DNA of 36,256 nucleotides, taken from assembly GCA_963736115.1 (NCBI GenBank), contig CAVTNR010000026.1, positions 1 to 36,256 of the forward strand. Direction: 5' to 3'. Positions 33,281 to 36,256 of the stretch are shown here, piece after piece. The DNA comes from an uncultured bacterium (GTDB taxonomy: Bacteria; Zhuqueibacterota; QNDG01; DTFT01). Position 1 is the first letter of the stretch. Every line of letters starts with the position of its first letter. The notes beneath the pieces were generated by a model, which made no database searches, was not told where the DNA came from, and worked only from the letters and a program-made list of their open reading frames with translations. The position numbers and the translations under genes were made by a program.

Positions 33281-33928
33281 ATGAGCGAACCGATCGGTAA
33301 AACCATACTGTCAGATCTGCGTCAGAGCGACCTCCTGCACACCCTGCATCGCGACCTGAAGGACATATACGATTTCTACCTGGACCGGGAGACGCGCGAA
33401 CGGCTGTCGCGCATGGGACGCGTCAAGCGCTGGTTCCACATGGCCTGGTGGCTGGTGAAGAGCATGTTCTACAAGCTCACGTCCGTGCGCCGCCTGATGG
33501 TGGTGCTGGCCGTGGTCATCGCCTTTTCCTCCGGCCAGGTCGCGTACAACGGCGAGCATTTCTCCTGGCACAGCGACTTCAAGGGGGTCGGATTCCTGAT
33601 TCTGCTCGTGGTGCTGATGCTCGAACTGAAAGACAAACTGCTGGCCCACGACGAACTGCTGGTGGGACGCAAGGTCCAGGCCGCGCTCATGCCCCTCGAC
33701 AATCCCGTGTTCCGGAACTGGGACATCTGGCTCTACACGCGTTCCGCCAATGAGGTCAGCGGGGATCTCGTGGATTATCTGCGGCTCTCGGAGGACCGGC
33801 TCGGCGTGGCGCTCGGCGACGTGGCCGGCAAAGGTCTGGGCGCGGCCCTGTGCATGGCGAGGGTGCAGGCCACATTGCACGCGATCGCGGCCGATTTCCG
33901 ATCCCTGGCCCGGCTCATGACCCGGATT
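33281..33928 (+). CDS. PP2C/SpoIIE (RsbU-like) phosphatase with two TM helices, truncated at the junction
   Basis: VQ.ALMP, A.EVSGD.VDY, ALGDVAGKGLGAALCMA. The C-terminal half (N.GH, TDG, DD) is missing. Confidence 0.88.
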
Positions 33929-34312
33929 GCGCTTCAGTTCTTCGGAGCAGAATGCGGCCTGGCTAGATGGAAAGCGGCCTTTCCATAAACACAGGTCAAG
34001 GAACGCATTGCCAGTAGGCACAAGCGCAGCAGATGCGCGTTCTATTGCTGCGGCAGACACTCCTTTTTCTGCCCATTTCGTCAGGACGTATTCTTTCTTT
34101 CCGGCGATCTGGCGAGTGAAATCAGCCCTGACGGTGCGAATCGGAAATACCTTGTCGTTCAGGTATTGAACGTACTCATAGGTTATTTCGTGTTCGTTGC
34201 CGGTGTCTGCGAAGACAGCCTGCATGTTGTCAGGCTGGCGCTCGATAGCCAGCAGAAGAAGTGCAGTCGAATCCTTGCCTCCGGATACGCTGATAATGTT
34301 GTGTTCGCTCAT
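33922..34312 (-). CDS. Phage phosphoadenosine phosphosulfate reductase family protein, truncated at the junction
   Basis: IISVSGGKDSTA (PP-loop), VFADTGNEH, KGRFPS....FCSEELK.NP. The remainder of the called ORF is antisense of the phosphatase gene. Confidence 0.85.
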
Positions 34313-34872
34313 ACGAACGCGCCGTCTCGGTAGGTTTTTAGAAGGTGACCATCTGCCGTGCAGATACCGTCAGATACCATCTGCTCGATGCAAGCCTTGA
34401 ACCGGTGGTCACGATCGGCCGCATCGAATATGAAAGCCAGGTGCGCAGCGGTGCGCGGATGAGTAGCCCAGTGCGTGTCGATTCCATCATGGATTTTTCC
34501 GGCGCCGATCGAATCACCGAGGCGCTTCGCCATCACGCGCTGATGCTCGACCTCTTCTGGTGTCTGCTTATGGGTCAGTGATGGAACCTTCGGCCCGATA
34601 CGCTTTGCGACGTCTCTGCATAGATCAGCGAATTGCGGTGCGTTCGGCGGAAAGTCGCGAGGCAAGTTCTTCAAGGCACCAGCGATTGCGTCCAGGTTGT
34701 CCGCAAACCCAGCGAGCTCTTCGGCCCACGCTTCTTTGGCGCCAAGTATTCCGACATCGACGTCGTTTTCGACGCGGCTGAACTTGGCTGTGAATTGGTT
34801 TCCATACGCTCCGAGAAGTCTGTCAAAGATTCTGGCTACAACACGGTCGTTAAGTCGTGGTGTGGTGGTCAT
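34309..34872 (-). CDS. Phage replication protein, lambda-P-like position (putative helicase loader or accessory)
   Basis: RIF.RL...YG..F..., W.EELAGF, PP..PQF.DLCR; directly downstream of the initiator-like gene. Confidence 0.65.
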   Translation of the reverse strand: MTTTPRLNDRVVARIFDRLLGAYGNQFTAKFSRVENDVDVGILGAKEAWAEELAGFADNLDAIAGALKNLPRDFPPNAPQFADLCRDVAKRIGPKVPSLTHKQTPEEVEHQRVMAKRLGDSIGAGKIHDGIDTHWATHPRTAAHLAFIFDAADRDHRFKACIEQMVSDGICTADGHLLKTYRDGAFV

Positions 34873-35612
34873 ACGATTTCCCCTTGGATCAGTTTTTCTG
34901 TGTTCTGCATCGGCGTCCCATAGATTGCCCTCATGGTCGCCTCGCTGTTGCGTTGCTTCTCGCTTTTGAAGCCATTTACCTGCTGCGTCACAGCCTTCTC
35001 ATTCCGCACCCATGTTCGCCAGGTTGCAGACCAATCGACTTTCCTTGCAGCAGCCCCACCCTTGGCACTCCAGTAGTCTCTGAAGTTCTCGACAACCCTG
35101 CTGACTTGCAGTTCTGGCCTCTCGGTTTTGCAGTAGGAAACTTCTGCTTCGCTAGGGCTCCAGTCAGCAGGCAAACGCGTAGCGGTTGCACCTACGCTTT
35201 TGACTTTAGGTTTACTAATGGGTATTGGGTTATGGGTAGCATCGTTTTTTGGTTCGTTCGCATTGCGGTCGGAATGCGTTCGCAATGCGTTCGCATTGTT
35301 TTTCTTCTTGTCCCAACGCGCGTTTGCGCTTTCCCTGGCCCTGGCTGACTTGCCGTAGAACTCGGCTATCACTGCATCGCAGCGTGATTGATGCCACTTT
35401 CCGTCATGCAGGAAAAAGAAATGCTTCAGGATCTGCTCAACGTCTGCGGCATTCGACCCGATCTTGAATGCGATCGCATTGCAATCGGTATCCAATGGCT
35501 GTTCGGTCGCATAGTATTCCCAGATCAGGCGAAGGTAGGCCATACCCTGAGAATCTGTAAGCCTGGCTGTATCCTTGATGAAGTCGCCGATGTGGTGCGG
35601 GTAAAACTTCAT
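34869..35612 (-). CDS. DUF1376/YdaU family phage replication initiator (O-like)
   Basis: MKFYPHHIGDF..DT..L.....AY.RL...YY..E.PL; C-terminal RLPADW.P...FRDYW.......K.DW.ATWR.WVR. Confidence 0.88.
   Translation of the reverse strand: MKFYPHHIGDFIKDTARLTDSQGMAYLRLIWEYYATEQPLDTDCNAIAFKIGSNAADVEQILKHFFFLHDGKWHQSRCDAVIAEFYGKSARARESANARWDKKKNNANALRTHSDRNANEPKNDATHNPIPISKPKVKSVGATATRLPADWSPSEAEVSYCKTERPELQVSRVVENFRDYWSAKGGAAARKVDWSATWRTWVRNEKAVTQQVNGFKSEKQRNSEATMRAIYGTPMQNTEKLIQGEIV
35255..35298. repeat. Four tandem 11-bp repeats, candidate replication-origin iterons
   Basis: CGTTCGCATTG, CGGTCGGAATG, CGTTCGCAATG, CGTTCGCATTG within the linker-coding part of the initiator gene. Confidence 0.75.
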
Positions 35613-35613
35613 T

Positions 35614-35717
35614 GACAAAGTTCCTTTGGTGGTCGCCCCATCCGGTGAGTGTTCCGGTAGGCGGCGACTATTGCTAGTCTGTACGGGCAGACGAGGCGAC
35701 CAACGAAGGAACCTGTC
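35614..35717 (-). ncRNA. Candidate structured cis-regulatory leader RNA of the initiator gene
   Basis: Long closing stem GACAGGTTCCTTCGTTGGTCGCC / GGCGACCACCAAAGGAACTTTGTC enclosing GTCTG-CCCGTA-CAGAC, GACTA-GCAA-TAGTC and CCGG-AACACTCA-CCGG hairpins. Ends 1 nt before the ATG. Confidence 0.6.
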
Positions 35718-35868
35718 CGCACTACTATGCGTCCTCACAACGCCTGATAATTCTAACATCATTTATGGTGAATCGGTACGCATCCTACGACAAACGGAGA
35801 CTCAATATCAACACAATTTTGTAATTTTTCATGGCCAGAAAAAAGATGAAAAATTTTCCTGAAAACTG

Positions 35869-35897
35869 TTGATTTAATCTCTTTGATCAAATAGTAT
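35869..35897 (+). promoter_or_regulatory. Putative phage rightward promoter
   Basis: TTGATT, 17 bp, TAGTAT; GGAGG RBS before 35943. Confidence 0.55.
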
Positions 35898-35942
35898 CGG
35901 CATATCGGATGCGCACAGCATCTGTGTGATGGAGGGAAAACA

Positions 35943-36068
35943 ATGAACAACTACCGCGCCTACGAGATCCTTCAGATGAAGGCCAGGATTCTTCGTATCG
36001 CTGTTGGAGTTGCTGGTGGGTTCTCCCTTCTTGTTCTGATTCTTGGACTCTTAGGAAAACTGAAATGA
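35943..36068 (+). CDS. Small phage membrane protein (41 aa)
   Basis: Not in the ORF track. MNNYRAYEILQMKARILRIAVGVAGGFSLLVLILGLLGKLK, with GGAGG RBS, one TM helix and an ATGA overlap with the next gene. Confidence 0.65.
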   Translation: MNNYRAYEILQMKARILRIAVGVAGGFSLLVLILGLLGKLK

Positions 36069-36247
36069 CCATCGACCACTCCGACCCAAGCTTCAGGGAG
36101 CCAGAACTCTGCAAGACCTGTGGAGAGCACTACGCCTATAAGCGTGGCCAGTGCTACGAGTGCTACGAGGCCGACGAATGCGAACACGCCGACCAGCAGC
36201 GCAAAGAGCGGCAGATTGAAAAACACTTTGGAAAGGAAGAAGAATGA
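36065..36247 (+). CDS. Small phage protein with CxxC...CxxC (putative zinc finger)
   Basis: CKTC...CYEC; ATGA overlaps at both ends. Confidence 0.65.
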   Translation: MTIDHSDPSFREPELCKTCGEHYAYKRGQCYECYEADECEHADQQRKERQIEKHFGKEEE

Positions 36248-36256
36248 GCAACGCAC

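Follow-up and report, generated by a model that had tools for sequence, protein, structure and literature searches.

The replication-initiator gene in the window, the whole 36,256-nucleotide stretch of DNA analysed here, is preceded by an RNA leader that we conclude to be real and conserved and that, on comparative evidence, would control access to the ribosome binding site (RBS) of phage replication initiators, possibly by switching between two folds. That the leader is more than a product of chance is decided by its conservation and by compensatory changes in the 15 distinct leader sequences we could compare. It is best read as the 5' leader of a phage replication operon on the minus strand, extending from 35613 to about 35743-35745 (about 135 nt), and its features are collected in the table below.

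The N-terminal domain of the encoded protein matches DUF1376 (PF07120, E 8.6e-19) and its C-terminal domain gives a weak DnaT-like match that falls under the family cut-off (PF17948, E 6e-4, residues 146-209). PHROG matches were to phrog_3992 'primosomal protein' (E 4e-34) and to a 'replication initiation protein' family, and the following gene encodes a weakly P-like helicase loader. These gene matches bear out the claim of the first-pass annotation that the leader precedes a phage replication initiator, to which the strand has to be added: both gene and RNA lie on the minus strand. The TAGAAT box that had been placed upstream is likewise present and, with its TG, forms an extended -10 promoter. 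A -10 hexamer is found at the same aligned place in all 15 sequences; its second base is always A and its sixth always T, whereas the hexamer as a whole varies (TAGAAT, TATAAT, TACTAT, GATGAT, AATAAT, TAAAGT), and the TG of the extended -10 occurs in 13 of the 15. The -10 box ends 6 nt ahead of the first G of hairpin H1 and this spacing is fixed; the predicted transcript start is probably near 35743, which would make H1 5'-terminal. A promoter scan of L068 found TTGACA-17-GATGAT with TG at the -10 site of the leader, and in L002 a terminator-like hairpin with a T-run stands immediately 5' of the promoter. Further upstream, window positions 35763-35942 form an AT-rich divergent intergenic region with the palindromes TTTTTCATGGCCA/TGGCCAGAAAAAA, AATTTTTCAT/ATGAAAAATT and CTCTTTGAT/ATCAAATAG and a further promoter-like site on the minus strand, TTGATA-18-TAGGAT (35811-35782). 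The palindromes and this second site are candidate operators of both early operons, between which no repressor gene was found.

Table. Features of the leader, its promoter and the gene behind it (window coordinates).
Feature	Coordinates	Strand	Basis or remark
Extended -10 promoter TG-n-TAGAAT	35750..35758	minus	TAGAAT 35750-35755, TG 35757-35758
H1, 5'-terminal hairpin (predicted), GCGT/ACGC stem	35729..35743	minus	loop GTGAG 35734-35738 is the 5' strand of K
A, 5' strand of helix A-A', GTAGTGCGG	35717..35725	minus	covariation, duplex energies
Lower B, 5' strand (anti-Shine-Dalgarno strand)	35702..35716	minus	fold and covariation
Upper B, 5' strand, GGTCGCCTCGTCTG	35688..35701	minus	pairing in 196/196 cells
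D, hairpin GACTA/TAGTC, loop GCAA in the window	35666..35679	minus	covariation
A', 3' strand of helix A-A', CCGCCTAC	35657..35664	minus	covariation, duplex energies
K, 3' strand CTCAC	35645..35649	minus	partner of the H1 loop; immediately adjacent to the 3' strand of B
Upper B, 3' strand, CGGATGGGGCGACC	35631..35644	minus	fold and covariation
Lower B, 3' strand	35616..35630	minus	covariation; holds the Shine-Dalgarno sequence AAGGA, 35622-35626
Replication-initiator gene, 247 aa/codons	34869..35612	minus	ATG at 35610-35612

The most conspicuous element of the leader is an inverted repeat with arms of 23 nt (35620-35642 and 35690-35712) that are 83% complementary and that grow in the RNA fold to a stem of about 26-29 bp, pairing 35616-35644 with 35688-35716. 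The Shine-Dalgarno (SD) sequence AAGGA is contained in the 3' arm of this stem, helix B, 9 nt before the ATG at 35612. The leader stretch is single-copy in the genome. A 126-nt leader RNA has a fold energy of -48.9 kcal/mol, compared to -35.2 +/- 3.8 kcal/mol for 200 shuffled sequences, one of which did as well (z -3.57). The opposite strand folds about equally well (z -3.52), so that fold energy alone cannot choose the strand. The first-pass annotation had confined the element to 35614..35717; the core elements are indeed inside these limits, but A-A', K and H1 lie partly outside them, reaching up to 35743. From A to A' the RNA spans 69 nt in the window.

Relatives of the DUF1376 protein were found by protein search in one genome contig and eight viral contigs. 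The same upstream region was present in four of the eight viral DUF1376 loci and absent from the other four, one of them with 77% protein identity. The proposed tie to DUF1376 was therefore abandoned in favour of a link with initiator genes in general. The leader was better conserved than the gene behind it in L010 (88.9% nucleotide identity over 180 nt vs 31% for the protein) and in L008 (84.2% vs 43%); nucleotide similarity to the window was confined to 35584-35762 in these two loci, and to the leader alone in five more. After protein and short-motif scans the set amounted to 15 distinct leaders and one near-identical copy, L004. Other pattern scans yielded chance matches only, in 4 unrelated contigs, 6 unrelated loci and 19 unrelated loci, the last scoring at most 14.4 bits with R1, a covariance model built from the leader alignment; in one pattern scan 14 of 29 distinct segments were unrelated.

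In the 16 sequences (the 15 and L004), the first gene behind the leader encodes a DUF1376 protein in 9, with the assignment of L002, L070 and L087 resting on a protein match or the N-terminus only, an HTH_36 O-like initiator in 3, a phrog_26426 replication protein in 1, an HNH nuclease in 2 (L066 by N-terminal likeness only) and, in 1, a GTG-start gene to which no family was assigned. In L085 the HNH nuclease is followed by an ORF judged by eye to be DUF1376-like. Judging from these loci, the conserved unit is the segment from the -10 box to the start codon, which travels with replication-initiator genes of any family; no partner gene beyond the initiator co-occurs in the flanks. The initiators of L059, L061, L065 and L083 form one BLAST cluster with the window gene despite their differing N-terminal domains (DUF1376, HTH_36, phrog_26426), and the PHROG families phrog_3992 and phrog_6451 match the L065 protein over residues 103-188 and the L083 protein over residues 124-219. 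Together with the weak DnaT-like match of the window's protein, this suggests that these proteins may have a C-terminal part in common, and it looks like domain shuffling behind a constant leader.

The distribution of the leader is narrow: its 15 distinct sequences are all from uncultured sources. R1 detected it only in G000 among 31 genomes of the order of the window and only in G034 among 151 genomes of the family of the latter, and cultured phages and plasmids gave no blastn match. Parts of the stretch were present in 20 public runs of 18 studies, mainly from freshwater, sediment and wastewater. In four RNA-labelled or possibly RNA runs, contigs cover homologues of the leader, contigs being silent on transcription, ends and strand.

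Covariation was counted in a MAFFT alignment of 14 sequences, to which L133 was added to give the 15 distinct leaders. Its members are closely related (mean column identity 76-79%) and represent few lineages, hence the number of compensatory events is small. The alignment nevertheless supports five pairings, H1, D, B, A-A' and K, as being kept through compensatory changes. H1 was paired in 56/56 cells, with a U-A to C-G change in 2 of the 14 sequences, and D in 70/70 cells, its innermost pair being A-U in 10 sequences and G-C in 4. Helix B (29 pairs) was 90% paired across the 14-sequence alignment. When H1, B and D were counted together, 92.5% of 531 cells were paired, compared to 29-49% in slid registers, and eight pairs had changed on both sides (0 of 500 shuffles). 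The two halves of B were also counted separately. The upper 14 bp were paired in every cell, 40 of which are G.U, with a C-G to U-A change at one pair (5 vs 9 sequences), and L133 adds a change from U.G to C-G. The lower, SD-pairing 15 bp were paired in 80.9% of 209 cells, mismatches occupying the other 19%, with slid registers at 23-55% and five pairs in which both bases had changed, a count reached by 4 of 500 shuffles. The long imperfect stem that the first-pass annotation had described as pairing the SD is thus present and maintained by compensatory changes, and the comparison of upstream regions that it had suggested did reveal such changes, in 15 distinct leader sequences.

Two further pairings reach across the leader. 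Helix A-A', which crosses helix B, occurs in eight distinct sequences among the 15 leaders, and its outer four pairs are formed in 15/15; the first pair is always G-C, and positions 2-4 take 4, 3 and 3 standard pair types. Duplexes of cognate A and A' strands had a mean energy of -12.95 kcal/mol vs -7.24 kcal/mol for non-cognate ones, and none of 10000 permutations was as good. Nested-fold energies with A forced were excluded from the analysis, as they cannot hold the pseudoknot. Pairing K was formed in 74/74 cells, with two pairs changed on both sides and matched one-base insertions on both strands in four sequences; its four variants are GUGAG/CUCAC, GUGGAA/UUCCAC, GUGAGA/UCUCAC and GUGGA/UCCAC. 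The substitution patterns show the SD to be one strand of a helix evidently under selection, and A-A' and K to be under selection as well. Invariant bases are found at the junctions of the leader (CCCG, CGGAAC, CAUAG), and these may reflect recent spread rather than constraint, given that the family is small and closely related.

The smaller elements of the first description fared less well. Its two partly exclusive hairpins are both present and GACTA/TAGTC, our D, covaries, but GTCTG/CAGAC (35677-35692), which overlaps D, is without covariation, and 4 of the 14 sequences lack one of its pairs. The CCGG...CCGG hairpin (35642-35657) is also present in the window; it is invariant and shows no covariation, it overlaps A, K and the top of B, and the 3' strand of K sits in its loop. 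A GNRA loop does not hold as a feature of D: GCAA is found in 10 of 15 sequences only, and the others have loops of 4-8 nt (e.g. TAAC). Two additional candidate pairings that appeared in folds of the nascent RNA, of the linker and the 3' part of A with GTCTGCCC and of GTCGCC (35662-35667) with GGCGAC of the 3' strand of B, were rejected as they were either not kept in one register or indistinguishable from B. A scan of all column pairs returned mostly lineage correlations.

Several observations bear on the strand and the nature of the element. The upper part of B is paired in 196/196 cells on the sense strand vs 156/196 on the antisense strand, where the 40 G.U pairs would be A.C mismatches, and the score of R1 is 130.1 bits on the sense strand vs 27 bits on the other. 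L133 behaves in the same way (114 vs 32 bits), and the asymmetry recurs in G005-G007. Because of these G.U pairs and this asymmetry of scores, we take the functional RNA to be the sense strand of the gene. The same selection for the sense strand goes against an antisense-RNA target, which had been offered as an alternative in the first-pass annotation, as does the result of a consensus scan, which cannot exclude a site and which found no plus-strand promoter- or terminator-like sequence within 35600-35760. In 8 of 14 leaders each of the three frames is interrupted by stops, leader lengths differ by non-multiples of 3, and the variable columns are without codon periodicity (22/18/15). Translational coupling to an upstream ORF was considered for a 37-codon GTG frame of the window that ends in ATGA at the initiator start, and rejected since the frame is not conserved.

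Searches for a known class were negative. Rfam 15 gave no match on the leader when window positions 35000-36256 were scanned with E up to 10 (three chance-level matches fell elsewhere, E 4.3-9.3), and no match to seven other leader members scanned whole with E up to 1, so that the undescribed motif envisaged from the start still stands. ARAGORN detected no tRNA or tmRNA gene in 35400-36000. A search for a second target with an 18-nt pattern and up to 3 mismatches retrieved nothing beyond the leader's own arms, both of them in G000 and G005 and one in G006, and had no match in G007, with similar counts in the controls. R1 found one sense-strand copy per record in G000, G005 (95% complete), G006 and G007; an antitermination site of the HK022 put or lambda nut type, which requires a copy in each early operon, was rejected on this ground. 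Pistol and other ribozyme folds were rejected on their features. Full-text literature searches on DUF1376 leaders and on pseudoknot leaders of phage replication initiators brought up nothing on this element in the portions of the articles that were available. To judge from these searches, no such RNA family has been described and the leader would represent a new one.

How could these pairings control the RBS? We propose that the leader is a two-state translational switch, with a pseudoknotted ON fold in which the SD would be free and an OFF fold in which B would be zipped, a proposal we hold to be evenly balanced between right and wrong. Only 1-3 nt would separate A from the foot of B; A' and K, joined by 7 nt, would be located at the top of B, 29 bp or about 80 Å away. 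Because these linkers are too short, A, K and the whole of B could not coexist; this exclusion is a distance estimate (about 2.8 Å per bp and at most about 6-7 Å per linker nt), and it could loosen if B were sharply bent at its internal loops. The ON fold would contain H1 with K, A, D and the upper 14 bp of B; in it the 15-nt anti-SD strand would provide the linker of an ordinary H-type pseudoknot, with the SD open. In the OFF fold, B would be fully zipped and the SD hidden. New transcripts would start in the ON fold, because A, D and A' are transcribed ahead of the 3' strand of B, and the later balance could be set by refolding over time, by a protein, by a small ligand or by temperature. Synthesis of the replication initiator would thereby be limited or timed. 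Calculated duplex energies are comparable in magnitude for A (-11 to -20 kcal/mol) and for lower B (-11 to -24 kcal/mol). Because lower B is much stronger than A in several members (-22.2 vs -11.5 kcal/mol in L049, -24.1 vs -12.1 kcal/mol in L085), the ON fold may not last long, or may depend on a stabiliser. A translational switch had already been part of the first description; the conserved SD-pairing leader upholds it, but the evidence for switching comes from A-A' and K and their crossing of the stem, which had been missed.

Part of this layout is shared with known regulatory leaders. In the repZ/repA leaders of IncI-alpha and IncB plasmids (ColIb-P9, pMU720), a long structured leader of a replication-initiator gene contains a helix that hides the RBS, and translation depends on a long-range pseudoknot made by the loop of a hairpin further upstream. 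K, too, is made by a hairpin loop, that of H1, but at another place. The plasmid systems further rely on a translated leader peptide and on an antisense Inc RNA; unlike them, our element has no conserved upstream ORF and no antisense promoter found by scan, its K lies about 20 nt upstream of the SD at the top of helix B instead of beside the SD, and it occurs in phages, with no plasmid match and no Rfam match. The lambda cIII mRNA (Rfam Lambda_thermo) and the MS2 maturation leader resemble our proposal in that exclusive folds or the order of folding decide access to the RBS. Their sequence and architecture are unrelated to those of our leader, no model matches, and the competition proposed here would be geometric, opposing a pseudoknot to an extended helix, in place of a competition for shared bases.

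The pseudoknotted fold may alternatively be the aptamer of a riboswitch-like sensor that would free the SD once stabilised by a small molecule or a protein. The layout is typical of an aptamer, with A free in sequence but paired, D carrying a variable loop and the junctions invariant; an SD-pairing expression platform is present, and the tie to one class of gene is steady. Translational ON riboswitches such as the add adenine riboswitch similarly combine a covarying closing helix, a conserved core and an SD-pairing platform, but no riboswitch family matches the leader and the genes regulated here are replication initiators. The narrow distribution and high identity of the family make invariance weak evidence for a binding core, the gene context suggests no ligand and no partner protein co-occurs in the flanks. 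We therefore find this reading doubtful, and equally doubtful the more specific idea of a doubly pseudoknotted sensor that would bind a metabolite, an alarmone or a host protein; if it were true, such a sensor would let phages make the start of their DNA replication depend on the condition of the host cell. A static fold is in our view unlikely. Here the 5' hairpin or pseudoknot would block decay, and helix B would be a putative RNase III site whose cleavage frees or destroys the RBS, much as the N leader of phage lambda is processed by RNase III. It would fit the position of H1 at the predicted 5' end, the 26-29 bp of B, which are enough for RNase III in principle, and the unbroken pairing of the upper 14 bp in 196/196 cells, yet it leaves unexplained why A-A', which crosses B, is kept through eight variants and why the SD in particular is paired.

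The c4 RNAs of P1 and P7 and the CI RNA of P4 also have a leader segment complementary to a downstream RBS and closed by a basal stem, and they are processed with RNase P to a stable RNA of about 77 nt that acts on targets elsewhere (a1/b1, seqA). By analogy, a domain of about 70 nt closed by A could be excised as an immunity RNA whose exposed 29-nt strand would pair in trans with the RBS of the replication gene, be it in the same phage or in a superinfecting one. The 69 nt from A to A' agree with this size and the enclosed strand is complementary to the downstream RBS of its own transcript, the 5' strand of B pairing with the 3' strand that includes the SD. It is quite improbable all the same, as the Rfam C4 and IsrK models give no match, the genome and three phage records hold no second target, K links the H1 loop to bases 3' of A' and so extends the functional unit beyond the basal stem, and the pairing region is the most conserved part instead of being diversified as an immunity determinant would be. 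Very remote is an element acting as DNA, such as an origin, an operator or another protein-binding inverted repeat. The equal fold energy of both strands and the adjoining divergent promoter region with its palindromes would suit it, against which stand the 40 G.U cells of upper B that become A.C mismatches on the other strand, the covariation of A-A' and K as RNA pairs at a distance, and iteron-like repeats that would fit an origin inside the gene instead. We give just as little credence to a self-cleaving ribozyme of a new or divergent class, to which the strand order A, 5' strand of B, hairpin, A', hairpin, 3' strand of B, the P1/P2 order of HDV-like ribozymes, had drawn our attention. In HDV-like ribozymes, P1.1 is formed from a conserved loop L3, the catalytic C that precedes the 3' strand of P2 is invariant, and P1 begins with a G.U pair. 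In our leaders the hairpin loop due to form P1.1, that of D, varies in sequence and length, the place of the catalytic C (J4/2) holds either U or C, helix A opens with G-C in 15/15 sequences in place of G.U, and no Rfam ribozyme model matches.

The repeats just mentioned are located at 35255-35298 within the DUF1376 gene, where three overlapping 22-nt copies make up an 11-bp periodic repeat (CGTTCGCAATG-like). They resemble iterons and may mark an origin of replication located, as in lambda O, within the gene for the initiator; in L007, short repeats of a similar kind are found upstream of the DUF1376 relative. Because of the repeats inside the gene, the DNA origin is probably elsewhere than in the leader.

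The leader belongs to a phage piece at the very end of the window, which otherwise is mostly cellular DNA with genes for glycoside hydrolases (GH43), arabinofuranosidases, a DnaE-like DNA polymerase III alpha subunit and cytochromes. G005, a 62-kb viral record that is 95% complete, is 97% identical over window positions 34305-36251. Its leader operon encodes the initiator, the P-like loader, NinB and a RusA-like resolvase, and its divergent operon RecT, a RecE-like exonuclease, dUTPase and SSB. Similarity to G005 ends at 34305, exactly after the P-like loader gene; beyond this position the window carries a PAPS-reductase-like gene and G005 an 89-aa ORF followed by NinB. Position 34305 is thus a mosaic joint. 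On the plus strand, 35943-36247 contains a hydrophobic 41-aa ORF and a 60-aa ORF with CxxC...CxxC that overlap by ATGA; neither has a Pfam or PHROG match, and the 60-aa ORF is kept in G005, where RecT and the RecE-like exonuclease follow it. At 33900-33990 a plus-strand SpoIIE-like phosphatase gene, whose Pfam match covers only profile positions 2-48 of 192, runs head-on into the minus-strand PAPS-reductase-like phage gene, whose family matches end at about residue 133, and the GC content drops from about 0.61 to 0.52. Either a prophage remnant ends here or the assembly is chimeric, which leaves the host of the phage piece uncertain.

What is known of how phages control their replication initiators concerns mainly transcription (lambda PR, repressors); for plasmids it concerns antisense RNAs. 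The two long-range pairings that cross around an SD-hiding helix, each with compensatory changes of its own, offer a compact and testable model of a conformational switch, and a ligand, if one exists, would define a new class of sensor. The promoter and leader together form a cassette that passes between phages whichever initiator family it serves and that is kept more strictly than the proteins, which suggests a general gate, at the level of RNA, on the onset of replication.
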